Positions 6,452 to 20,018 are shown, counted from the stretch's first letter. The stretch: 20,018 nucleotides of DNA from Abditibacteriaceae bacterium (GCA_031425655.1 JANPJS010000149.1:1-20018); one strand, 5' to 3'. The notes: generated from the sequence alone by a model not told the origin. Program-made: numbers and translations.

Positions 6452-6898
6452 CCTCATATTGGCAGCCGCGAGGCCCGCGACGAAGAAGTTGTTTTGTCGC
6501 AGCCTCTTGATCTCTTTGGCAAGCGCCGGGCGCAGGCGGGTGTCGCTGCTGCCGGATTGCGCCGCGCCGAGGCAGACGCCACGCTGTCCGAGCGGTCACT
6601 GGTGGTGCAGGTCAAAAATGCCGCCGCCGACCTATATGCCGCGCAGGAAGCCGAATCGTTGGGAGAAGTTCAAGTCGAAGTGGCCGTGCTGTTCCGTGAC
6701 GCCGCCGCGCGCCGTGCCCAGCTTGGCGATGTGCCACTGGTTCAAGTGCAGCGCGCCGATTTGGAACTCTTGCATGTGCAAAACGAGCTGACGAATGCTC
6801 AGGCCGAGCGTTTGGCGCGTCAGGCCGCGCTCACTCAATTGATCGCGCAGCCGCCCGAAACCCCGCTGCGCGTGGCCCTGCCGCTTGCCACCGGAGCG
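6452..6898 (+). pseudogene. Internal fragment of a TolC/CzcC-family outer-membrane efflux protein
   Basis: PHIGSREARDEEVVLSQPLDLFGKRRA...AARRAQLGDVPLVQVQRADLE...QAALTQLI is one OEP repeat. There is no signal peptide, RBS or second repeat, and the frame runs into a palindromic element at 6901. Confidence 0.75.
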
Positions 6899-6900
6899 GT

Positions 6901-6971
6901 TGTCATTCCGAGTGGAGAGGGCGCCCGTTTTGCTCGTGCCTCGTCCTGCCCCGCCTACGCTCGGAATGACA
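6901..6971. repeat. REP/MITE-like palindromic element
   Basis: Perfect 12-bp inverted repeat TGTCATTCCGAG (6901-6912) / CTCGGAATGACA (6960-6971), extending imperfectly inward. Confidence 0.7.
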
Positions 6972-6996
6972 CGTTTCTGTTGTCCTGAAAATCCTA

Positions 6997-7010
6997 ATGC
7001 GATTGCCCTG
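6997..7010 (+). mobile_element. Possible isolated IS end (ISAs1-like terminal inverted repeat)
   Basis: ATGCGATTGCCCTG (reverse complement CAGGGCAATCGCAT) resembles ISAs1-family termini as I recall them. It directly abuts the point where adaptor-like coding sequence begins. No transposase or partner end was seen. Confidence 0.35.
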
Positions 7011-7301
7011 ACCCGCGCCCTCATAGACAACCCCGGCCCGCTGCGACCCGGAATGTTCGCGCGCGGCCAAATCCAGACTGGCCTCGGCCAGTTGTCTCTC
7101 ACGGTTCCTGCATCCGCCGTGTTGGAAGACGGCGCGGCCAAAGTCGTCTTCGTGGCCCAAGGCGGCAAATACCAGCGGCGCGAGGTGACAATTGGCAACG
7201 AAAGCAATGGGCGCATTGAAGTCAAGAGCGGCTTGAAACAGGGCGAAACCGTAGTCACTGACGGCGCGCCCTCCCTGCGCGCTCAAGCCGCAAAATCGTA
7301 A
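7011..7301 (+). pseudogene. C-terminal fragment of an RND periplasmic adaptor (CusB/CzcB-like MFP)
   Basis: TRALIDNPGPLRPGMFARGQI...VPASAV...VFV...RREVTIG....IEVKSGLKQGETVVTDGA is the beta-barrel end and membrane-proximal domain only. Confidence 0.8.
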
Positions 7302-8904: not shown

Positions 8905-8957
8905 TTTTTCGTGCGCCCAACACCGCCCGCTTCGCCCAACAGATTATCCATTGGCTC

Positions 8958-8986
8958 TTGGCGCTTATACCCATGTGGGGTATATT
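8958..8986 (+). promoter_or_regulatory. Sigma70-type promoter for csoR-copA
   Basis: TTGGCG (8958-8963), a 17-bp spacer and TATATT (8981-8986), overlapped by the first operator. Confidence 0.7.
8966..8984. promoter_or_regulatory. CsoR operator 1
   Basis: TATACCC-ATGTG-GGGTATA is the C/G-tract palindrome typical of CsoR operators, directly upstream of csoR. Confidence 0.85.
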
Positions 8987-8996
8987 CTCTTAGTGA

Positions 8997-9013
8997 ATAC
9001 CCCTCATGGGTAT
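8997..9013. promoter_or_regulatory. CsoR operator 2
   Basis: ATACCC-CTCAT-GGGTAT is a second copy, centred 30 bp downstream of operator 1. Confidence 0.82.
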
Positions 9014-9043
9014 ATAAGCAAGCCTGAACTGGAGGAAACCCTT

Positions 9044-9334
9044 ATGGACGACGAATCGCGCAAAAAGGTGAAATCGCGCACAAACCGCATTGCCGGCCAG
9101 GTCGCCGGCATTCAGAAGATGATTGACGAAGACCGTTATTGCGTTGACATCTTGAATCAGATTTCTGCGGTGCGCTCGGCGCTGGACGCGCTGGGATTGG
9201 AACTGCTGGGCAAGCATCTGGAAGGGTGCGTTTTGGGACACGGCACCGACTCAGAACACCACTGCGCCAAGCCGCTGAGCGAGGAAGAATTGGTGGCGGA
9301 AATGCAGACGGTGATCGCACGATTTTTGAAATAA
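9044..9334 (+). CDS. csoR: Copper-sensing transcriptional repressor, CsoR/RcnR family, 96 aa
   Basis: GGAGG RBS and ATG 9044. RIAGQVAGIQKMI..RYCVDILNQISAVRSAL...HLEGCV carries the Cys-His-Cys ligand set. Confidence 0.92.
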   Translation: MDDESRKKVKSRTNRIAGQVAGIQKMIDEDRYCVDILNQISAVRSALDALGLELLGKHLEGCVLGHGTDSEHHCAKPLSEEELVAEMQTVIARFLK

Positions 9335-9352
9335 GAACAGGAGGTGAAACCA

Positions 9353-11863
9353 ATGGCAACAGCAACAAATACCAAAGTGACAGACCCGGTTTGTGGGATG
9401 GAGATCAACTCGAAGGACGCGGCAGGACGCAGCGATTTTGGTGGCGCAAGCTATTTCTTTTGCTCTGATTCGTGCAAAGCGAAGTTTGACGCCGACCCGA
9501 CTCAATATGCCGTTGAAGAAGCTGGCGAGGAGCATGATGTCTCCGCCACTGAAGACAGCGCGACAATGGAAGGCGGCACAGAGCGATGCGATTTGCCGCT
9601 TCTGGGGATGCACTGCGCCGCTTGCGCGGGGCGCATCGAGAAGGTGTTGAACAAAACGCCGGGTGTTGAGAAGGCGAGCGTGAACTTTGCCACGACGCGC
9701 GCCACGGTGCATTACGACGCGGCGCAGACCGATCCCATGCAGTTGCGCGCGGCGGTGCAGAAGGCCGGCTACGACGCCATCGTGCCGGAGCCAGCTTCGG
9801 AAGATGCCGGGCTGGATGAATCGTCCAACGCTGAAACGCAGGCGCGCGAAGCAGAATACAACGCGCAAAAGCAGAAGTTCACTATCGCTTTGGCGCTGAC
9901 GGTTCCCGTGCTTTTTCTGGCGATGGCGGGGCATTTGAACGCCTCATTGGAGCGGATGCTGAACTTCCCCGGTCGCGTCTGGCTGGAGATGATTTTAACC
10001 GCGCCGGTTTTGTTCTGGGCAGGCCGCGAATTTTTCACCGGCGCGTGGGCGGCGGCCAAACACCGTGCCGCCGACATGAACACGCTGATCGCCATCGGCA
10101 CCTTCGCCGCCTTTGCTTACAGCGCCGTGGCGACCTTCGCGCCGCAGATTTTCATGACGGCTAACAGTCATGCTGCAAGCGGTGGCCATGCCATGACGGC
10201 GGTCTATTATGAAGTGGCCGCCAGCGTGGTGACGCTGATTCTGATGGGCCGCTTGCTGGAAGCGCGGGCGCGGGCGCGCACATCGGGCGCTATTCACGCT
10301 TTGATGGGCTTGGCGCCCAAAACCGCGCGCGTCGAGCGCGACGGAGCAGAGCAGGATATTCCCATCAGCGCCGTGCTGGTCGGCGACATTGTTATCGTGC
10401 GCCCCGGCGAAAAAGTGCCGGTGGACGGCGAAATTGTGGACGGGCAATCGAGCGTGGACGAATCCATGCTGACCGGCGAACCGATGCCGGTGTCGAAGAA
10501 AGCTGGCGATACGGTTATCGGCGCGACGCTGAACAAGACGGGCACTTTTCGTTTTAAAGCGACCAAAGTTGGCAAAGACACGGTTTTGCAGCAGATCGTG
10601 CGTTTGGTGCAGGAAGCACAAGGCTCCAAAGCCCCAATTCAGCGCATGGCCGACCAGATTTCCGGTGTCTTCGTGCCGATTGTGATTTGCATTGCCATTG
10701 CTACCTTCATGGCGTGGTTCATCTTCGCGCCGGTTGAAAGCCGCTTAACCCTTGCCCTGCTCACCTTCGTTTCCGTGCTGATTATCGCCTGCCCCTGTGC
10801 GTTGGGATTAGCAACGCCAACCGCGATCATGGTGGGAACCGGGCGTGGGGCACAAAGCGGCGTGCTGATCAAAAGCGCCGAGGCTCTGGAAACCGCTCAC
10901 AAGCTGGATACGATTGTGCTGGACAAAACCGGCACCATCACCCAGGGAAAGCCTGCCGTCACCGACATTGTGGCGCAGGACATCGAAGAAAACGAGCTGC
11001 TGCGTTTGGCGGCTTCTGCCGAGCGGGGCAGCGAGCATCCGTTGGGCGAAGCCATCGTGCGCTCGGCGCAGGAGCGCGGCCTTAGCCTTTCGCAGCCGCA
11101 GGAGTTCAACGCCATCGCCGGGCATGGCATTGAGGCGACGGTGGACGGGCGCAAAGTCCTACTCGGCAACGCCAAATTGATGATGGAGCGCAATATCTCC
11201 GGTGGCAAAGACGAGGTTCGCAGTCTGGCTGAAGGCGGTAAAACCCCGATGCTGATCGCGGTGGATGGCCGTTTCGCCGGTATTATTGCGGTCGCTGATC
11301 CCATAAAAGAATCGTCACGCGCCGCGATTGAGCGTCTGCATCAGCTTGGTTTAGAGGTCGCCATGATGACCGGCGACAACCGCGCCACAGCGGAAGCCAT
11401 AGCGCGGCAAGTTGGCATCGAGCGGGTTTTAGCCGAAGTTCTGCCCGAAGGCAAAAGCGCCGAAATCAAAAAGCTGCAAGCCGAAGGCAAGCGCGTGGCG
11501 ATGGTTGGCGACGGCATCAACGATGCGCCGGCTTTGGCGCAGGCTGACGTGGGGATTGCGATGGGCAGCGGGACGGACGTGGCGATGGAAGCCGCCGACA
11601 TCACCTTAGTCAAGGGCGACCTGAACGGCGTGGCCTCCAGCATCGCACTCTCGAAGGCGACCATCCAAAACATCAAGCAAAACTTGTTCTTCGCCTTCAT
11701 TTACAACGTGCTGGGCATTCCCATAGCCGCAGGGTTACTTCATCCCTTCACCGGCTGGCTGCTCTCGCCGATTATCGCGTCCTTGGCGATGGCCTTGTCC
11801 AGTGTCAGCGTGGTCGGCAATGCGCTGCGCTTGCGCGGCTTCAAAGTGGAAAGGGGGGCCTGA
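9353..11863 (+). CDS. copA: Cu(I)-translocating P1B-type ATPase with N-terminal YHS and HMA domains
   Basis: AGGAGG RBS and ATG 9353. Motifs [14 protein letters not shown] (YHS), MHCAAC (HMA), [33 protein letters not shown] and MALSS identify the P1B-1 subtype. Confidence 0.96.
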
Positions 11864-12150
11864 TGGATACAGCCGAAATCTTCGTTCTTATTGGCGGCAC
11901 GCTTTTGATCGCCTTTACGCTCTGGTTTTTCTTTGGCAAGCGTGAAGAGGAAGCCGCCACTGTCACCGCCGAGGGAAAGCCGCTTTACGAGTGCCCGATG
12001 CACCCTTGGATTACCAGCACCGACCCCGCAGCCAACTGCTCGCTGTGCGGCATGAAGCTGGTGCGGCGCGGCGATGCCGGTGCGAAACACGAGGCTTTAC
12101 AGCAGGGACACGGCTCGCCGTCCTCTCATGGCTCAAAGCCGCATCACTAA
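11863..12150 (+). CDS. Small membrane-anchored heavy-metal-binding-domain protein, 95 aa
   Basis: TGATG overlap with copA. N-terminal TM helix ending WFFFGK, YECPMHP..ANCSLCGMKLV motif and His-rich tail. Confidence 0.85.
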   Translation: MDTAEIFVLIGGTLLIAFTLWFFFGKREEEAATVTAEGKPLYECPMHPWITSTDPAANCSLCGMKLVRRGDAGAKHEALQQGHGSPSSHGSKPHH

Positions 12151-12188
12151 ATCAGCAGACCACAACAGGCCAAACAGGAGATGAGGCA

Positions 12189-12761
12189 GTGGAAACTACT
12201 AAAGGCATAAAGTGCGGCGCGTGCATAAGCTATGTGGCGGAAGCTGGTGGGCGCGTTTTTTTACTGTTGTGGTTGGCCGCTCCTTGTATTGTGGCAGCAT
12301 CCGATGCGCGTCCTGTTGCACCGCTAAAACTTGGCGCTAAGCAGCCTGCCCAGATCATTTATCACAAGACCTTGGAAAAGGCGTTGAAGGCCGCGCAAAA
12401 GTCCAAGCGGCCCGTGCTGGTCTACTTCCATGCGGCGTGATGCAGCCCCTGCAAGGCGATGGAGCATAGGGTGTTAACCGATGCCCGCGTCGTTGGCGCC
12501 GCGAAGAAATGGGAGGCGGTGCGCGCCGATATGGACAAGGAAAGCTCACTGGCCGTGCGCCTGAAAGTGGAGCGTCCACCGACTCTGGTATTCCTGACGG
12601 CGCAAGGACGTGCCGCCGGGCGCCACGAAGGGTATGCCGAGGTTTCCGATGTTCTCAAAGTGCTGCGGGTCGCCCATGCCCAGGCCGCGCCGCAGAAGAG
12701 CCAAAAGCAAAGCAACCTGAAACAGCAGAAACGGGCCGCTCCGAACAAATCTTCCCATTAA
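12189..12761 (+). pseudogene. Exported thioredoxin-family protein interrupted by an in-frame TGA (12438-12440)
   Basis: AGGAG RBS and GTG 12189. ORFs 11991..12440 and 12459..12761 share a frame and read LEKALKAAQKSKRPVLVYFHAA*CSPCKAMEHRVL...VERPPTLVFL...RHEGY, a thioredoxin fold with the stop at the Trp position of WCxxC. Confidence 0.75.
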
Positions 12762-12772
12762 GGATCAATTTT

Positions 12773-13987
12773 ATGTTTGACACATTCGTTCACCACCGTT
12801 CAGTCCGCCGGGTCAGAGGTGTCTTGGGATGCCTCGGAGTTTTCATAGCAGCATGGTCGTCGTTGGCCTGCGCGCAGAATGCGCCTATTGTTACTGTTGC
12901 GCGGGTGCCCTCCGGCGGCATTCAACCGCAGATAATCGCCAAAAACGGCATCTATCATCTGGCTTATTTGAAAGGCGACCCGAAAGCCAACGACGTATTT
13001 TATGCGCGCTCGACGGACGGCCAGAATTGGAGCGCGCCGCTGCGCGTCAATTCGCAGCCGGGCAGCGCCATCGCGATGGGCACCATTCGCGGCGCTCACT
13101 TATCAGTGGGCCGCAACGGGCGCGTTTTCGTGGCGTGGAACGGCTCCGGCAGCGCGCAGCCGCGCCTCGATTTTGTGCCGGAAAGCGCGAAAAAATATGG
13201 CGCTTCACCGTTCTTGTTTTCGCGCTTGAAGGAAGATGGCAGTGCCTTTGAGCCGCAGCGCAACCTGATGACCAAGACCTTCAACCTGGATGGCGGCGGC
13301 TCCTTAGCCGCTGATGACGAAGGCCGCGTTTACCTGGTCTGGCACGCCAATGACAGGGATGGGCAGGACGAAGCCGGACGGCGGGTGTGGATCGCGCGCT
13401 CCAGCGATGACGGCGCGACCTTTAGCACCGAAACGCCGGTCTGGAACGAGCCGACCGGCATTTGCGGTTGCTGCCAAATGCGGGTTTTAGCAGAAAACGG
13501 CGGCACAGTCACACTCCTCTATCGCTCGGCAGGCGAAGTGGTCAACCGCGACACCTACGCGCTGGTTTCCAACGACAAGGGAGTCACCTTTCAGGGCCTC
13601 AAAATCCACGATTGGAAAATCGGCGCTTGCCCGATGAGCAGCTACTCTCTGATAAAAGACGGCGCACGCCTGTTGGCCGCCTGGGAAAGCGACAAGCAGG
13701 TTTTCTTAGCGCCGCTGGGCGCTGACATGAAGCCGCAGGGCATCGCGCCGGCACCCGGCAAAGGCGACAACCGCAAGCATCCTGTATTAGCCGCCAATAA
13801 GGACGGTCAGATTTTGATGGTGTGGACGGAAGGCACCGCCTGGGCACGCGGCGGCAGGCTGCGGTGGCAAGTCTTTGACGCGCAAGGCCGCGCCCTCGGC
13901 AAAGCCGGTGAACAAGATGGCTTGCCCGTTTGGAGTTACGCCACGGTGATAGCCGGTTTGGACGGGAAATTCACCGTTCTCTATTGA
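12773..13987 (+). CDS. Exported BNR/Asp-box (sialidase-like) beta-propeller protein with CGCC and GACP motifs, about 404 aa
   Basis: AAGGA RBS, ATG 12773 and signal peptide (..SSLACA-Q). Asp-boxes STDGQNW, SSDDGATF and SNDKGVTF, plus ICGCCQ and WKIGACPM. Confidence 0.8.
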   Translation: MFDTFVHHRSVRRVRGVLGCLGVFIAAWSSLACAQNAPIVTVARVPSGGIQPQIIAKNGIYHLAYLKGDPKANDVFYARSTDGQNWSAPLRVNSQPGSAIAMGTIRGAHLSVGRNGRVFVAWNGSGSAQPRLDFVPESAKKYGASPFLFSRLKEDGSAFEPQRNLMTKTFNLDGGGSLAADDEGRVYLVWHANDRDGQDEAGRRVWIARSSDDGATFSTETPVWNEPTGICGCCQMRVLAENGGTVTLLYRSAGEVVNRDTYALVSNDKGVTFQGLKIHDWKIGACPMSSYSLIKDGARLLAAWESDKQVFLAPLGADMKPQGIAPAPGKGDNRKHPVLAANKDGQILMVWTEGTAWARGGRLRWQVFDAQGRALGKAGEQDGLPVWSYATVIAGLDGKFTVLY

Positions 13988-14122
13988 ATTTGGTCGTCGG
14001 ATGGATGCTCTATAGAGATGTTCAAATCTGATAGATTCGGCCATTTAGCGGATGCCCGCATTCCGCGAAAACCCCAAAATATTCCTTGATGCCACAACCA
14101 CGGCATCGGGGAATGAATAGCC

Positions 14123-14635
14123 ATGCGGAACGTGCGAAAGGGCATTAGCAAGCAACCAAATATAGGAGCGCCGTTGGCGTTGCTGCTGGTTGCTCTGCTG
14201 GTCGTCGTGCATCCAGCATCGCAGTTGCTTTGCGTCTTCATGCCCTGCGGGGTGTTAGCCGCAGAGCATGCCAAGCAACCAGTGCGCGCGTGCTGCCGCA
14301 AAGACAAGGCCTCGCAGCCGACAACGGCTTCCTGCTGCAAGAAGAAGCAAGCCGCAAGCGATTGCAATCCGTTACCCGACAATAGCAGGCCGGATACAGC
14401 GTGCTGTGGCGACGCTCGGAATCACAATTATGTGAGCGGCAAGACACTGCGCCTTGCGCCCAAATTCTCGCATTGGCAACACGTTTCTTATCCTCTTGTC
14501 GCGGTGCTGCTGCCCAGCATGCCGGACGTTGCGCCGAAAGTCATCCGCCATACGCTGCGCGACGGCCCCAGTTCTCCACCGGCTTCGCCTTTTCTCCGTC
14601 CCGTGTTGGGACGCGCTCCCCCTGAGTTGGCTTGA
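14123..14635 (+). CDS. Cys-rich DUF2946/CutF/CruR-like leader protein with a C-terminal RAPP arrest motif, 170 aa
   Basis: N-terminal hydrophobic segment, 9 Cys (CVFMPC, three CC pairs, one single) and a Pro-rich C-terminus ending LRPVLGRAPPELA*. It lies upstream of exported metal-handling genes. Confidence 0.7.
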   Translation: MRNVRKGISKQPNIGAPLALLLVALLVVVHPASQLLCVFMPCGVLAAEHAKQPVRACCRKDKASQPTTASCCKKKQAASDCNPLPDNSRPDTACCGDARNHNYVSGKTLRLAPKFSHWQHVSYPLVAVLLPSMPDVAPKVIRHTLRDGPSSPPASPFLRPVLGRAPPELA

Positions 14636-14800
14636 TGGGCCTGCCTCGCGGCATTGCCCTGTTCGCCTCGGCCTGCCTCCGATTGCGGCTTTCGCTTGCG
14701 GAAGCCAGAGCGGGTTGAACGCAGAACGCAATCCACCGACGTTTGACGTTCGGGTGCGGCCCGATGGCACGCATCCACCCAAACCACAACTCAGGGAGTG
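14614..14800 (+). promoter_or_regulatory. Predicted anti-SD/SD long-range stem linking the RAPP codons to the RBS of the next gene
   Basis: CCCTGAGTTG (14620-14629) is the exact reverse complement of CAACTCAGGG (14787-14796). Pairing extends over GGGAGTG (14794-14800) with a 2-nt bulge and one G-U pair. Confidence 0.65.
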
Positions 14801-14806
14801 AGTGAA

Positions 14807-15559
14807 ATGACATTGAATTTGAAAACCATTGCAACCGGCTTGGCCATTGGAGCCAGCCTGATGAACTTTGCGCCGTCTTCGGTGCAGGCGGCGGACGCCG
14901 CACTGGGCACCGCGCAGCAAGCCGGGCCATTTACCGTGACGCTGATCGCTTCGCCGCAACTGGGCCGCACCCGTTTTGAGGCGCGCGTCAGCCGCGATGG
15001 AGCTTACGTCACCGACGCGCAGGTTCGCCTTAGCCTCTCGATGCCGTATCACAAGCACGGCGGCACCTCAGACCGTCTCGCCGATGTGGACGTGAACCGT
15101 CAGGGCGGACAATACGCCGGCTCGATCAAGTTGAAGATGGAAGGCATCTATCAGGCGCGCGTGACCGTGCAAGGCGCCGGGCAAAAAGGCGCCGCCGCTT
15201 ACAGCTTCAAAGTCGGCAAGAACGCCGCAAACGCGCATCTGGGAATGTGGCATCCGGCAGGCAACTTTGAAGTGCGCTTCACCACCGATCCGGCCACGCC
15301 TAAAGCCGGCGAAAACAAGCTGCGCGTCCAAGTGGCGCGCGATGGTCAGCCCGTCAGCGGCGCGACAGTGAAGCTGCATCTTTCGATGCCGGGAATGCGG
15401 ATGGCCGGAGCGGTTGTTTCCTCTACGCTCTCACCCAGCGGCAACGCTTACGAAGGCACTGCCAAGCTGATTCATTCCGGTGACTGGCAGGCGCACATCA
15501 CAGTGAACGCCAACGGCACTAAGGGCATCGCTACCTACAACTTCACGGCAAGCGAATAA
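14807..15559 (+). CDS. Exported protein with two YtkA/FixH-like Ig domains, 250 aa
   Basis: GGGAG RBS, ATG 14807 and signal peptide (..SVQA-A). Internal repeat AG.F.V...RDG..V..A.V.L.LSMP...Y.G..KL...G.(Y/W)QA, with loops SMPYHKHG and SMPGMRM. Confidence 0.75.
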   Translation: MTLNLKTIATGLAIGASLMNFAPSSVQAADAALGTAQQAGPFTVTLIASPQLGRTRFEARVSRDGAYVTDAQVRLSLSMPYHKHGGTSDRLADVDVNRQGGQYAGSIKLKMEGIYQARVTVQGAGQKGAAAYSFKVGKNAANAHLGMWHPAGNFEVRFTTDPATPKAGENKLRVQVARDGQPVSGATVKLHLSMPGMRMAGAVVSSTLSPSGNAYEGTAKLIHSGDWQAHITVNANGTKGIATYNFTASE

Positions 15560-15652: not shown

Positions 15653-16420
15653 ATGAAACCGATTCTTTCCCGCATTTTTGTGTTGGCGTTTGCCAGTTGG
15701 ACTGCGTTCAGTTTGCTGCCGGCCCACGCCAAAGATAAGCCCTTGCTGGGCAAGCCACAGGCTGCCGGGCCATTCCAAATTACGCTCTCCACGATTCCCG
15801 TTGCGCCGCAAGCCGGCGTGAACCGCTTCCGCCTGGAAATCTTCCGCAAGGGAGAAATTGTGAGCGACGCGCAGGTGTCGCTCACCCTCACCATGCCCTT
15901 GCACCGGCATGGCGGACGTTCGGACAACGAGCCGGAAGTCACGCCGCGTCTGGTCTTCGCTAACGGCACTTATCTCGGCACTGCCCGCCTCACCATGCAA
16001 GGAGTGTGGCAGGCACAGATTTTCGTGAAGTCTGCCGCTGGTAAGGGCAAAGCGACTTACCGATTTACCGCCGGCAAAGCGGCGCCCCTGCATCTGGGCA
16101 TGGCGCACATGGCGGGCGATTTCGTTGTGACGCTTACTACCGAGCCGCCTACACCCCAAGCAGGCGACAATCGCTGTGTCGTTTCCGTCAACCGCGACGG
16201 GCAAGCGGTTCAGGACGCAAATGTCAGCGTGGATTTTAGCCGTCCCGCCAATCAGCCCCCGACTTTTTCCGTGACGCTGGCGCGCAACAACAACCGCTAT
16301 GAAGGCACCGCGACTCTGCCGGAGCCGGGCGATTGGGAAGCGCACATTACCGTTCAATCCGGTGACACCAAAGGCACGGCGCTTTACCAGTTCCGCGCCG
16401 GTCATTCACAAGGACCATAA
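15653..16420 (+). CDS. Exported protein with two YtkA/FixH-like Ig domains, paralog of the upstream gene, 255 aa
   Basis: AAGGAGG RBS, ATG 15653 and signal peptide (..PAHA-K). Aligns by eye with 14807..15559 (LG..Q.AGPF..TL, DAQV.L.L.MP.H.HGG.SD, HLGM.H.AG.F.V, GDW.AHITV....TKG.A.Y.F.A). Confidence 0.78.
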   Translation: MKPILSRIFVLAFASWTAFSLLPAHAKDKPLLGKPQAAGPFQITLSTIPVAPQAGVNRFRLEIFRKGEIVSDAQVSLTLTMPLHRHGGRSDNEPEVTPRLVFANGTYLGTARLTMQGVWQAQIFVKSAAGKGKATYRFTAGKAAPLHLGMAHMAGDFVVTLTTEPPTPQAGDNRCVVSVNRDGQAVQDANVSVDFSRPANQPPTFSVTLARNNNRYEGTATLPEPGDWEAHITVQSGDTKGTALYQFRAGHSQGP

Positions 16421-16425
16421 AGGCG

Positions 16426-19400
16426 ATGACCATGAACAGACACTTGCGCGCCCTTTGGCGCGCGATGCTGTGGCTTTTAATCTTCGCTGTGCCTTCACAG
16501 GCGCAGCACGAAGGACACGGCGGAGCGCCGCCCGCTACTAATGGAACTTCCGGCGTGCAGGCGATGGCCGGGCCGTATCGCGTGACGCTCCGCAGCGATC
16601 CGCCGGTGGTGCCGGTCGGCAAGGCGACGCTGCTGCTGAAAATCACCGACGCGGCGGGCCAGCCGATTGAAGGCGCGCAGGTGCGCGTGCTGGCGAAGAT
16701 GCCCGCCATGAACATGGGCGAAGTGGAGCAAAGCGCCACGCCCGATTCCCGCGAGGCGGGCTTATATCGCGTGCCCGCCGCCTTTGCGATGGCGGGCGGC
16801 TACGACGTGAAAATCAGCATCAGCGCCGCAGCGGGACAAGCTACAGCGACGATTGCGCTGCAAACCGGACAGAATACCGCTACGGCCCAGAAGCGTTTTT
16901 CGTGGCCGATTATCGTCGGCGCCCTTGTTCTGCTTGGCCTTGCGCTGTTAATTTGGCGTGGCAGGCGCGAAGGCACTTTCAATGTGCGCGCGGCGCTCAA
17001 TCGTCAGACCATCGGTGGCGTTGCCCTCCTGTTGCTCATGCTGGCGATTGCTGTTTATGCGGTGCGAAATTTTCGGCGGCCCGGCGCTATGACGCCAATT
17101 GAAGCGCAGGCCATGCAGATGGAGTTGCCGGCGCCGCCCGGCGTCCTGGCGGTGCAACTGGTCGAGGTTGAAACCGGCGAAGTGCGAAGCAGCGTGCAAT
17201 ACACCGGACAGGCGGCAGGCTTCGCCGAGCAGGACGTAGTGACGCGCGTGGCGGGCAACCTTCTCTGGATGCCGCTTTACGCCGGTGATTCCGTGAAGCG
17301 CGGTCAGCTTTTAGCGCGGCTCGACACCAGCCAATACGACCCGCAGGTGGCCGAGCGCCGCGCGATGGTTGGGCAGGCGCAGCAGCAGGCCGACATCGCC
17401 CGCGTGGAATATCAGCAGGCGTTATCCGGCGTGAATCAGGCGCGTTCCGAAATCGGCTCCAAACGCGGTGCCCTTGACGATGCGCGCGGACAGGATGAGA
17501 AAAGCGCAGCGGAAATCCGCGCCCGTCAGAACATGGCGCAGGATGTTTCCAGCCAGGCGGTGCGCGCCCGCTCCGAAATCACGCGGCGCCGCGCGGCCCT
17601 CGACGAAGCCCGCCACGACGAGGCCAAAGCCAAGTCCGAGGCCCTGACTAAAGCCGGCGCCCTCGAAGACGCGCGAGCCGGCGAGCGCAAGGCCAAAGCC
17701 GCCTCGCAGGAAGCGCAAACCGCGTTGCGCGGCGCGAAGGGCGCCCTCGATGAAGCGCAAAGCGACGTGACGGCGGCGCGCGAAGAAAAGTCCAACGCCG
17801 AGGCTGATGTCGCAGCGGCGCAAACCCAGACCGCCGACGCGCAGGCACAAGTCGAAGCGGCGCAGGCCGATGTGGATTATTGGAAAAACGAGATCGCGCG
17901 CATGACGGCGCTGCTCAAAGAAGGCGCGGTTTCCAAAGAAGAGTTTCAGCGTGAGCAAGCGCAAGCGGCGCAGGCCGCAGCAAAGCTGCGACAAGCGCAG
18001 GCACGAGTCAATCAGGTGCAGGCCGAGATTCGCGGCGCCGAGTCGCGGGTTCGCAAAGCCGACGCCATGATCGCCAGCGCAACAGCCAAAGCCACGCAAG
18101 CACAGGCCGCCATCGAAGGCAGCCAGTCGCGCATTGAGCAGGCGCAGGCCGACATTGCCGGTGCGACGGCGCGCGTGGCGCAAATGCAGGCCGATGTCGA
18201 AGCCGCACAATCCGAAATCAAAAGTGCCGGTTCGCGAGTGCAGCAAGCAAGGGCCGAAATTAAAGGCGCCGAAGCCGAAGCCGGCGGCGCCCTTGCCCGT
18301 GTCCGTGCCTCGCAGGCCGATGTGGACGCCGCACGGGCCGAAGCCAAAGCCGCCGCCGCAAGGGTGCGCCAGAGCGAAGCCGATGTGAGCAGCGCACAAG
18401 CGGCGGCGCGTTCGTCCGAAGCGGCGGCCCGCGCTATGCAGGGCCGTATCGCGGCATCGCAATCGGGCGTGCGCCAAGCCGTCGCTTCGCTCACCAGTGC
18501 CACGACCACGCGCGGCTACACGGAAATCCGCGCGCTCGTGGATGGTGTTGTCACGCAGCGTTTGATTGCGCCGGGCACGCTTGTGCAGCCGGGTCAGGCG
18601 ATTCTTAAAGTCGCGCAAATCAATCCGATTCGCTTGCAGGCCAACGTCGCGGAAGATGACCTAAGTGCTGTCCGTGTCGGCGCCGGGGTGACGGTGCGCT
18701 CCGGGAAAAGCACAATTCAAGCGCGGGTTACCTCCGTCACGCCCGCCGTGGACCCGACTGCCCGCACCGGCACCGTCGAGGCGATTGTGGCGAATCCGCA
18801 AAAGCGCCTATTGCCGGGACAGTTCGTAGAGATGGAAATCTTCACCGGCCAGAAGTTCAACACGGTGCGCGTGCCGTCGCGCGCCGTGCGCCAACGCACG
18901 CCGCCGTCAGGACAGGTGCTTTCCACACAGCCGCAACATCTGGTATGGCTGGCGGAACCGGCTTCAGACGGCCAGTTCACGGTGCGCGCCACACCCGTCC
19001 GCGTTGGGCTTGCCTCCGATGACAAAACCGAAGTTCTCAGCGGCTTGAAGCCGGGCCAGAAAATCGTGGTTGCGGGTTACCAGTTTCTCAAGGACGGCGA
19101 TACGGTAGCCGCCGGGCCAACGAATGGGCTACCGGGGCCAGCGAAGGCCAGTGAGCATCAGCATGGCGCGATGCCTGAAAGTAGCGCTCAACGGTCCAGC
19201 ATCGCCATCACAGAAAAAGGCTTCGAGCCGGCGCAAATCGAAGTCAAGCGCGGCCAATTGGCGCGCGTGAGTTTCACCCGCAAAACCGATGCGACCTGCG
19301 CCACCGAAGTCGTGTTTCCCTCGCTGAATATCAAAAAGTCGTTGCCACTCAATCAGCCGGTGACGATTGAATTTACGCCGCGTAAGGCAGAGACGCCGTT

Positions 19401-19446
19401 CGCCTGCGGCATGAAGATGTTCAAGGGCAAGGTCGTGGCGCAGTGA
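16426..19446 (+). CDS. RND efflux periplasmic adaptor (MFP) with N-terminal YtkA-like domain, two TM helices, a very long coiled coil and a C-terminal cupredoxin domain
   Basis: Lipoyl halves (GDSVKRGQLLARLD; IRALVDGVVTQRLIAPGTLVQPGQAIL), beta-barrel (PAVDPTARTG..NPQKRLLPGQFV), membrane-proximal domain (EVLSGLKPGQKIVVAG) and tail GFEP..C..FTP..FACGMKMFKGKVV. The start is 16426 or 16432. Confidence 0.88.
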   Translation: MTMNRHLRALWRAMLWLLIFAVPSQAQHEGHGGAPPATNGTSGVQAMAGPYRVTLRSDPPVVPVGKATLLLKITDAAGQPIEGAQVRVLAKMPAMNMGEVEQSATPDSREAGLYRVPAAFAMAGGYDVKISISAAAGQATATIALQTGQNTATAQKRFSWPIIVGALVLLGLALLIWRGRREGTFNVRAALNRQTIGGVALLLLMLAIAVYAVRNFRRPGAMTPIEAQAMQMELPAPPGVLAVQLVEVETGEVRSSVQYTGQAAGFAEQDVVTRVAGNLLWMPLYAGDSVKRGQLLARLDTSQYDPQVAERRAMVGQAQQQADIARVEYQQALSGVNQARSEIGSKRGALDDARGQDEKSAAEIRARQNMAQDVSSQAVRARSEITRRRAALDEARHDEAKAKSEALTKAGALEDARAGERKAKAASQEAQTALRGAKGALDEAQSDVTAAREEKSNAEADVAAAQTQTADAQAQVEAAQADVDYWKNEIARMTALLKEGAVSKEEFQREQAQAAQAAAKLRQAQARVNQVQAEIRGAESRVRKADAMIASATAKATQAQAAIEGSQSRIEQAQADIAGATARVAQMQADVEAAQSEIKSAGSRVQQARAEIKGAEAEAGGALARVRASQADVDAARAEAKAAAARVRQSEADVSSAQAAARSSEAAARAMQGRIAASQSGVRQAVASLTSATTTRGYTEIRALVDGVVTQRLIAPGTLVQPGQAILKVAQINPIRLQANVAEDDLSAVRVGAGVTVRSGKSTIQARVTSVTPAVDPTARTGTVEAIVANPQKRLLPGQFVEMEIFTGQKFNTVRVPSRAVRQRTPPSGQVLSTQPQHLVWLAEPASDGQFTVRATPVRVGLASDDKTEVLSGLKPGQKIVVAGYQFLKDGDTVAAGPTNGLPGPAKASEHQHGAMPESSAQRSSIAITEKGFEPAQIEVKRGQLARVSFTRKTDATCATEVVFPSLNIKKSLPLNQPVTIEFTPRKAETPFACGMKMFKGKVVAQ

Positions 19447-20018
19447 AAATCAATTTCGGCGCCGCGCGGCCTTCGATTCAGCGTTGGTCCATCGAGCATC
19501 CCTACACGGTCATCGCGTTTTACGTCGCGGTGGTGGCACTGGCGTTTATCGCCATTACGCAGCAGGTGCCGCGCCGCTTCGCGCCTTACATTGAAAGCCC
19601 GCTCGTCGGCGTGGTCACCACGATGCCGGGCCTCTCGGCACAGGAGATGGAAACCTATATCTCCAAGCCGATTGAGGAGCAATTGGTCAACATCAAAGGT
19701 TTGCGTTACATTCGCTCCACCTCGCAGGACGGCTTTTCGATTGTCTCCATCGAGTTTGAATACGGGACAGACATCCGCAAGGCGATTTTCGATGTGCAGG
19801 CACTGATGAACGTCATTCAATCGAGCCTGCCCATTACCGGCTCGAATCTGAAACCTTCGTGGGTTGTGCCGATTGACCCGCTGAATATCCCGATTCTCTC
19901 GCTGAGTTTGCGCGGCGACCCGGCGCAGGGCTGGGACATGGCGAAGGTGCGGGAGTTCGCCGACAACACCGTCGTCAACCGCCTGAAAACTGTGCCCAAC
20001 GTGTATTCGATTGTGCCG
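19443..20018 (+). CDS. RND efflux permease (AcrB/CusA/CzcA family), 5' part only
   Basis: GTGA overlap with the adaptor stop. Manual translation: MKINFGAARPSIQRWSIEHPYTVIAFYVAVVALAFIAITQQVPRRFAPYIESPLVGVVTTMPGLSAQEMETYISKPIEEQLVNIKGLRYIRSTSQDGFSIVSIEFEYGTD..., open to the window end. Confidence 0.92.
   Translation, partial: MKINFGAARPSIQRWSIEHPYTVIAFYVAVVALAFIAITQQVPRRFAPYIESPLVGVVTTMPGLSAQEMETYISKPIEEQLVNIKGLRYIRSTSQDGFSIVSIEFEYGTDIRKAIFDVQALMNVIQSSLPITGSNLKPSWVVPIDPLNIPILSLSLRGDPAQGWDMAKVREFADNTVVNRLKTVPNVYSIVP

Follow-up and report, generated by a model that had tools for sequence, protein, structure and literature searches.

The codons of a C-terminal RAPP motif in a cysteine-rich leader sequester, in the computed fold, the Shine–Dalgarno (SD) site that belongs to the gene at position 14807, and a ribosome placed on these codons is computed to release it. 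The locus lies within the window, the whole 20,018-nucleotide stretch of DNA from an Abditibacteriaceae bacterium (GCA_031425655.1 JANPJS010000149.1:1-20018) that we analyzed, and its features are listed in Table 1. We consider it very likely that the locus is an RNA switch run by the ribosome at RAPP, and likely that the input to this switch is a metal; given a metal input, it is fairly probable that the metal turns the downstream operon on. The complete account that we favor, with some reserve, is a metal switch that works co-translationally in the manner of CutF/SecM, in which a metal-prolonged stall would open translation of the operon.

Table 1. Features of the leader, the operon and its island (window coordinates), and sister leaders of the same genome
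Feature	Position	Strand	Description or basis
Leader ORF, 170 aa	14123..14635	+	N-terminus basic; export segment hydrophobic; Cys-rich region and Pro-rich linker; GRAPP plus three residues at the C-terminus
Predicted signal peptide or signal anchor, residues 16-33	14168..14221	+	Hydrophobic sequence; sole helix in low-confidence AlphaFold model
Putative metal-binding region: C37, C42, C57-58, C71-72, C81, C94-95	14231..14407	+	Sequence; presumed binding
RAPP motif, residues 164-167 of 170	14612..14623	+	Sequence
Anti-SD arm: RAPP codons and next two codons	14614..14629	+	MFE fold, pairing analysis
Spacer, forming several hairpins locally and closed by the long helix	14636..14786	+	Fold
Sequestered arm with SD GGGAG (14794-14798) and ATG (14807)	14787..14809	+	Sequence, fold
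Gene 1: double-YtkA protein, exported, carrying Met/His motifs	14807..15559	+	PF13115, E 1.4e-24
Gene 2: double-YtkA protein, paralogue of gene 1 (48%)	15653..16420	+	PF13115, E 1.8e-28
Gene 3: YtkA, RND membrane-fusion (MFP) and cupredoxin fusion, Met-rich	16426..19446	+	Profile matches
Gene 4: RND permease, cut by contig end	19443..20018	+	Profile matches
Repressor of CsoR/RicR type and Cu ATPase of CopA type, located upstream within this island	8951..11863	+	PF02583; NF052430 (below cut-off); TIGR01511
C16 leader (Cys-rich, CxxC)			Heads OEP-MFP-CDF-CzcA-ZntA-type operon
C256 leader (1 Cys, 16 His)			Heads OEP-MFP-CusA/CzcA operon
C28 leader			Heads exported MerB-like/YHS/cupredoxin genes
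C59 leader			Heads 56-aa secreted Cys-rich peptide

A sequence-only reading of this DNA had described a Cys-rich, exported-type ORF ending in GRAPPELA with RAPP at 14612–14623, and re-reading of the sequence agrees: the ORF at 14123–14635 terminates as G-R-A-P-P-E-L-A-stop. Its basic N-terminal region and the ensuing hydrophobic helix (residues 16–33) form a candidate export signal, judged from sequence and model; the AlphaFold prediction, computed with five sequences in the input, reaches a pLDDT of 45.5 and is uninformative apart from this helix. The leader contains nine cysteines, including three CC pairs and no CxxC (CC pairs in place of a CxxC had been noted earlier), and its last pair, C94–C95, lies 68 residues before Arg164. 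The RDG..GRAPP signature is kept in homologues sharing 61–65% (P0002), 44% (P0005), 41% (P0011) and 36% (P0026) identity with the leader. C37 and C94–C95 are invariant in all five members of this subfamily, and they are the only cysteines that are; two of the five members are His-rich, with other cysteines replaced by histidine. Searches of Pfam and NCBIfam returned no family match for the leader (0 Pfam families at E<=0.1), and none of the leaders searched scored above a cut-off. A 6-bp inverted repeat is present at 14088–14107, directly 5' of the leader's own SD.

Nucleotides 14620–14629 are the exact reverse complement of 14787–14796, as previously proposed, and ten is the length of the longest Watson–Crick match. 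The minimum free energy (MFE) fold of 14590–14830, suggested earlier as a check, contains a helix over the SD and has an energy of −99.3 kcal/mol (z −3.28), which none of 200 shuffled sequences equaled. This helix pairs 14614–14629 with 14787–14804 through 16 bp with two single-base bulges and stops 2 nt 5' of the ATG at 14807; the claim of a duplex of about 14 bp over the GGGAG ribosome-binding site (RBS) is thus upheld as to coverage of the SD and amended as to length. The bases paired with the SD are those of the two proline codons (14618–14623), and the 10-bp core has a mean pair probability of 0.93 in four different fold windows. The two arms are separated by 157 nt, and 171 nt lie between the leader stop and the ATG.

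Folded alone, the spacer has a z of −1.5, and structured spacers occur in 44/83 relatives. A requirement of the spacer hairpins for closure of the helix is not supported, as the modeled helix survives a shuffled spacer in 59 out of 60 folds. A consensus scan of 13900–14900 detected no sigma-70-like promoter and no terminator, including in the 14636–14790 segment, where the sequence-only reading had considered an independent promoter as an argument against the switch. An Rfam search of 13900–14900 yielded no match at E<=5.

Opening the SD costs 11.8–13.6 kcal/mol in the free RNA. The cost falls to 4.7 kcal/mol when the footprint of a ribosome on RAPP is blocked and the upstream RNA is allowed to refold, and to 2.6–2.7 kcal/mol when folding is restricted to the RNA 3' of the ribosome. 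The earlier proposal that a ribosome at RAPP covers the anti-SD and frees the RBS fits this geometry and these energetics, as well as the paralogues and relatives described below. A ribosome terminating on the leader leads to an equal opening cost of 2.6 kcal/mol, so that arrest would set the dwell time rather than the geometry. The arm being covered by terminating ribosomes too, and a CsoR-type gene being located nearby, one could imagine an unregulated translational coupling in which the helix is opened by each ribosome that completes the leader and RAPP does no more than extend its stay; control would in truth be exerted on transcription, for example through CsoR, and the leader would serve as a secreted metal-binding peptide. 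We judge this improbable because a RAPP-type motif is conserved at the peptide level, 2–5 codons from the stop, in 93/98 leaders (its arginine is encoded by five different codons among the 98 relatives) and because the cysteines begin abruptly 60 residues before RAPP: across 94 leaders, 113 fall in the 60–69 residue bin as compared with 6–11 per bin between 10 and 59. Such a spacing is meaningful only for a nascent chain and therefore counts against simple coupling.

Among 1612 other SD-containing start regions of the same genome, only two pair equally well with the leader window, which argues that the pairing is not due to chance. A fortuitous match between C-rich proline codons and a G-rich SD has to be weighed, since CCN codons pair with any GGAG and, using a loose duplex score, the cognate RBS is the single best partner in only 2/58 related loci; the scarcity of equivalent RBS windows, the preference of five out of five paralogues for their own RBS and the compensatory changes presented below nevertheless make it a very remote explanation.

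These paralogues emerged from a screen of the same genome (G000) for ORFs with RAPP or RGPP in their last 16 residues, which returned 24 ORFs, five of which combine a GRAPP ending with a hydrophobic N-terminal part. The five leaders have distinct tails, and in a 5x5 matrix the best partner of each is its own RBS; the numbers of genome RBS windows (out of ~1612) pairing equally well are 2, 22, 10, 15 and 77. As the four sister leaders were absent from the sequence-only reading, they provide independent support for the switch. The C16, C28 and C256 leaders (L026, L027, L029) each possess an anti-SD of their own, and two of these loci use UUG starts. At the C59 locus (G000:C59:1-736, L053), as in L036, L039, L041-L045, L050 and L051, the leader heads a secreted peptide of 38–56 residues with dense CC/CxxC motifs, which we take to be metallothionein-like from its resemblance to exported metallothionein; in this subfamily, the small peptide is followed 3' by a terminator-like hairpin. 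In L036 and L042, the first gene, 90–410 nt past the leader stop, looks decayed, yet pairing between its RBS and the tail of the leader persists.

The targets of all five leaders in this genome are metal-related. This observation, together with the exchange of cysteine for histidine in sister leaders (the C256 leader, with a single Cys and 16 His, precedes a CusA/CzcA-family pump), speaks against a stall switch responding to the redox or disulfide state of the envelope or to export load, with no metal involved. We hold that version to have little likelihood, even though the nine cysteines could form disulfides, a thioredoxin-like gene lies upstream and RAPP uORFs are also found 5' of DsbA and thioredoxin genes (PMC12992588; here and below, what we cite refers to the available parts of each paper).

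We subsequently turn to the relatives. A RAPP-type leader precedes the orthologous MFP gene in 46/62 genome loci with at least 3 kb of upstream sequence and in 45/80 metagenome loci; at the 62 genome loci, the control motifs AAPP/AGPP and KxPP were found in none and the reversed motif in 11. For 58 loci (10 duplicates and 4 leaders lacking a start having been removed from 72), in which the choice of start took no account of pairing, the cognate duplex averages −16.5 kcal/mol versus −12.7 kcal/mol for swapped partners (permutation z −10.3, uncorrected for kinship). Over 40 clusters, the excess of cognate over swapped pairing is greatest between +0 and +12 nt from the Arg codon, at −2.12 +/- 0.59 kcal/mol, and declines to either side. 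When ATC/ATT/CTG starts were allowed post hoc, cognate pairing at the stall site reached p<0.1 in 40/98 loci, compared with 4–11/98 at four upstream offsets (7 leaders without a start were left out). Blocking the RAPP footprint lowers the SD opening cost by at least 3 kcal/mol in 29/54 loci, after dropping 4 loci with gaps >330 nt, versus 1/54 for an upstream block and 5/51 for a block in the spacer. The first proline codon of RAPP is CCT in 66/98 leaders, as compared to 222/1105 for the other leader proline codons.

The signal is uneven across the family, and specific pairing is absent in more than half of the relative loci. In a held-out genome set (52 loci minus 8 duplicates and 6 without a start), the blind ATG/GTG/TTG rule gave an excess of −1.56 +/- 0.90 kcal/mol, with 5/38 loci at p<0.1, no better than the control offsets (6/38 at −60 and at +30); the post hoc rule allowing ATC/ATT/CTG starts raised this to 12/41. 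At gaps of at least 150 nt, the family pairing signal is weak (8/35 versus 6/35 at offset −60). The 14123–14810 locus is a strong case despite this weak long-gap family signal.

Compensatory changes in homologous loci, proposed earlier as a check, were found in one subfamily and not in another. A subfamily of eight sequences shares a 12-bp helix with 92.7% of cells paired and 3/12 pairs changed on both sides, a level of covariation matched by one out of 500 shuffles, and RNAalifold gives the same helix; this helix was first spotted by eye in these very sequences, whose members are kin. The helix is also conserved in a subfamily of 15 sequences (71.9% paired versus 31–51% when slid), but its covariation does not exceed that of shuffled alignments (142 and 203/500 reach it) and RNAalifold predicts no structure. 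Covariation evidence is limited to these related subfamilies since DNA of a direct orthologue of the leader was not found: 0/194 candidates among metagenome contigs with P0002 as query, 0/285 among genome contigs with alignment A3, and only G000 itself among 31 genomes of the class.

In a subfamily mostly from Fimbriimonadaceae, to which the 15 sequences belong, the sequestered SD lies ~55–65 nt past the leader stop and precedes an AUC or AUU that is in frame (L145, L150, L151, L157, L159, L164, L166, L171, L173, L174, L176, L178, L179, L182, L202, L204), with the first ATG/GTG/TTG ~25–30 codons further on and a conserved CGxxxCxC in between. These AUC and AUU codons are probably non-canonical start codons behind the RAPP switch.

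The operon starting at 14807 probably handles copper. The CopA-type ATPase of the island scores 630.7 bits against TIGR01511 (cut-off 397). A full-length orthologue of gene 4 (in L030) scores 288 bits as opposed to the CusA/CzcA cut-off of 701, and, as the RND is not recognizable as CusA/CzcA, the term copper rests on the neighboring genes. The permease at 19443–20018 and its orthologue at L030:4452-7940 fall below all curated subfamily cut-offs, and the latter is Met-rich (54 Met in 1162 aa); they possibly represent a clade of Cu/Ag-type RND proteins in Armatimonadota that is as yet undescribed. Most of the operon's named relatives come from Armatimonadota, with Abditibacteriaceae and Fimbriimonadaceae among the best matches.

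Several further observations concern the island. A thioredoxin-like domain spans two frames at 11991–12761 (ORFs 11991–12440 and 12459–12761), possibly reflecting a frameshift or a pseudogene. Fragments of an outer-membrane efflux protein and the C-terminus of an MFP, in different frames, at 6494–7301 are what remains of a further RND operon where the copper island begins. An exported BNR-repeat protein is encoded at 12509–13987, immediately 5' of the leader, and L018 has proteins like it in the vicinity of YtkA genes.

We propose that, as long as no ribosome occupies RAPP, the RAPP codons and the next two would pair with the SD of the gene at 14807 across the folded 157-nt insert and that the paired SD would, according to the computed fold, keep the YtkA–YtkA–MFP–RND operon untranslated. 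The leader would be threaded through Sec during its synthesis. With RAPP at the peptidyl-transferase center, the Cys cluster, at least 68 residues upstream, would have cleared the tunnel and the membrane and would reside in the periplasm; sensing outside the membrane is suggested by this Cys-to-RAPP spacing, as ~30 residues are accommodated in the tunnel and 17 across the membrane (Ozturk et al., 10.1101/2022.11.11.516240). Arrest at RAPP, expected from RAPP peptides tested elsewhere, would place the ribosome exactly on the SD-pairing nucleotides and leave the SD free; since the stall codons hide the RBS of the operon, a stalled ribosome should switch the operon on. Normally, export pull or the folding of disulfides would soon end the arrest. 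Binding of the cysteines by a thiophilic metal, in view of the neighboring genes most likely Cu(I)/Ag(I), could lengthen the arrest, so that the operon would be translated when metal is in excess.

In the RAPP class, the stall register has the P site holding peptidyl-RAP-tRNA and the A site occupied by Pro-tRNA (PMC10951233, PMC12992588). Arrest was observed in vitro for 7/7 C-terminal RAPP/RGPP proteins of S. lividans and for CruR, and RAPP arrest is species-dependent (PMC12992588).

The direction of regulation is argued by analogy, and metal-prolonged stalling, as in CutF, appears reasonably probable for an RND operon adjoining copA. The same switch could work with the opposite sign, as in CruR: arrest would then be the default ON state, and metal would free the chain, allowing the helix to re-form and Rho to finish the transcript, which would turn OFF an operon that delivers or scavenges copper. 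The leader indeed carries the RAPP of CruR, whose arrest is relieved by Cu (PMC9426467), and not the PPP of CutF. YtkA/CtaK supports CuA assembly, and B. subtilis YtkA serves this assembly and not efflux (PMC13344008), a role that fits the opposite direction of regulation. The genome also contains a Rho gene, and throughout the family the tails of the leaders are rich in C (C/G 1.7–1.9). The RND, CopA and CsoR-type repressor of the island, however, point to detoxification, as do the CzcCBA/ZntA-type and metallothionein-like genes behind the sister leaders; the last 90 nt of the leader show no marked C>G stretch, and the CxxC–RAPP spacing of CruR (45) occurs in 0/94 leaders. We consequently regard the opposite sign as unlikely and retain metal-prolonged stalling as the preferred direction.

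Taken jointly, the data allow the tentative suggestion, which we put forward as rather doubtful, that Armatimonadota control their metal-export and metal-binding genes by a set of nascent-chain sensors that are paralogues of one another and have private anti-SDs in their stall codons. The ligand set of each leader (CC-rich, CxxC or His-rich) would be read out beyond the membrane, the anti-SD would reach an RBS at a distance of 25–300 nt through occlusion and not through melting by a helicase, and leakage would be kept low by weak start codons, namely UUG and, in one subfamily, AUC/AUU. Were this so, the leaders would constitute a translational regulon, orthogonal and metal-coded, that fills the role of two-component metal sensors, and a single genome would offer five switches open to testing. 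Because these five natural variants have different ligands and targets, exchanging their sensor and RNA modules would make ligand specificity and sign testable. The yet unnamed GRAPP leader family would combine an explicit RNA output, the stall codons being the anti-SD, with a ligand-to-stall spacing of at least 60 residues. Such leaders could act over gaps >100 nt, present in 57/98 loci, which Ozturk et al. thought unlikely in the available text. The only characterized metal-sensing arrest leaders in the literature found, CruR and CutF, act in opposite directions.

Several known systems share part of this architecture. Our literature search, which mostly covered journals open without subscription, retrieved no description of RAPP stall codons acting as an anti-SD or of the GRAPP leader family. 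The RAPP motif of the leader, conserved at the peptide level, places it with the ApdA/ApdP/CruR class of arrest peptides, on the presumption that it arrests; no SD-sequestering hairpin is predicted for the ApdA/ApdP RAPP peptides in the accessible parts of PMC10987492 and PMC7897499. The leader also resembles the small secreted RAPP/RGPP uORFs, which are exported, have RAPP near the C-terminus and neighbor metal-homeostasis genes (PMC12992588); the targets named there are TonB, YcnI, PCu(A)C, PepSY and DsbA, and stem-loops, efflux and YtkA go unmentioned in the available portion of that paper.

The likeness to CruR (Bp2923, DUF2946/PF11162) of Bordetella pertussis comprises a predicted export signal, a C-proximal RAPP three residues from the end and a 162-nt gap to a copper-related operon (PMC9426467). 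The DUF2946 analogy drawn in the sequence-only reading does not extend to membership, which we rejected: the leader has no PF11162 match and no CxxC 45 +/- 2 residues before RAPP, its nearest Cys being 68 away. A whole-genome PF11162 search gave one sub-cut-off match elsewhere (13.9 bits) and none at the leader locus, and 0/94 related leaders have a CxxC 43–47 residues before RAPP. An Atlas look-alike with DUF2946 in 23% of its members (rank 27, score 0.91) is a lead only. CruR moreover acts by Rho-dependent termination, with metal relieving the arrest and a TonB importer as target, according to the same source.

In SecM–secA, VemP, MifM and uDF_RQH, as proposed here, a stalled ribosome disrupts an SD-sequestering stem; those leaders monitor Sec/YidC and head translocon genes (PMC10987492, PMC7897499), whereas the genes downstream of ours encode YtkA, YtkA, MFP and RND and not secA, secDF or yidC.

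Another close parallel is CutF–cutO of Rhodobacter capsulatus, with an exported Cys-containing leader, a C-terminal proline motif, an SD-hiding stem and a copper-related target (10.1101/2022.11.11.516240 = PMC9973294; 10.1101/2025.02.05.636593). The leader has PP within its last 15 residues, a same-strand neighbor within 1000 nt and, in silico, a stem in which the downstream SD is concealed until stalling opens it; its length of 170 aa exceeds the published filter of <150 aa, which is operational and not mechanistic. The sequence-only reading did not know the combination of such a leader with a YtkA/RND operon to be described; outer-membrane-efflux (OEP) and RND genes are in fact the commonest neighbors of CutF-like leaders, whose metal sites vary between Cys and His (10.1101/2022.11.11.516240), and YtkA is not named in the available text. 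The supplement text of PMC9973294, in the parts available, likewise contains no mention of Armatimonad, Abditibacter, Fimbriimonas, YtkA or PF13115, and the protein lists of its 29 CutF-like clusters may hold relatives. The leader differs from CutF by RAPP in place of PPP, by CC pairs in place of CxxxC, and by 68 instead of 45 residues between metal site and stall motif. Its stall codons are themselves the anti-SD, so that the ribosome would occlude an arm of the helix, whereas the CutF ribosome melts an intergenic stem-loop, and it would act over a gap of 171 nt, whereas Ozturk et al., in the accessible text, expected that only short gaps would permit unfolding of the stem. In summary, the leader would work like CutF–cutO and SecM–secA and carries the RAPP motif of CruR.
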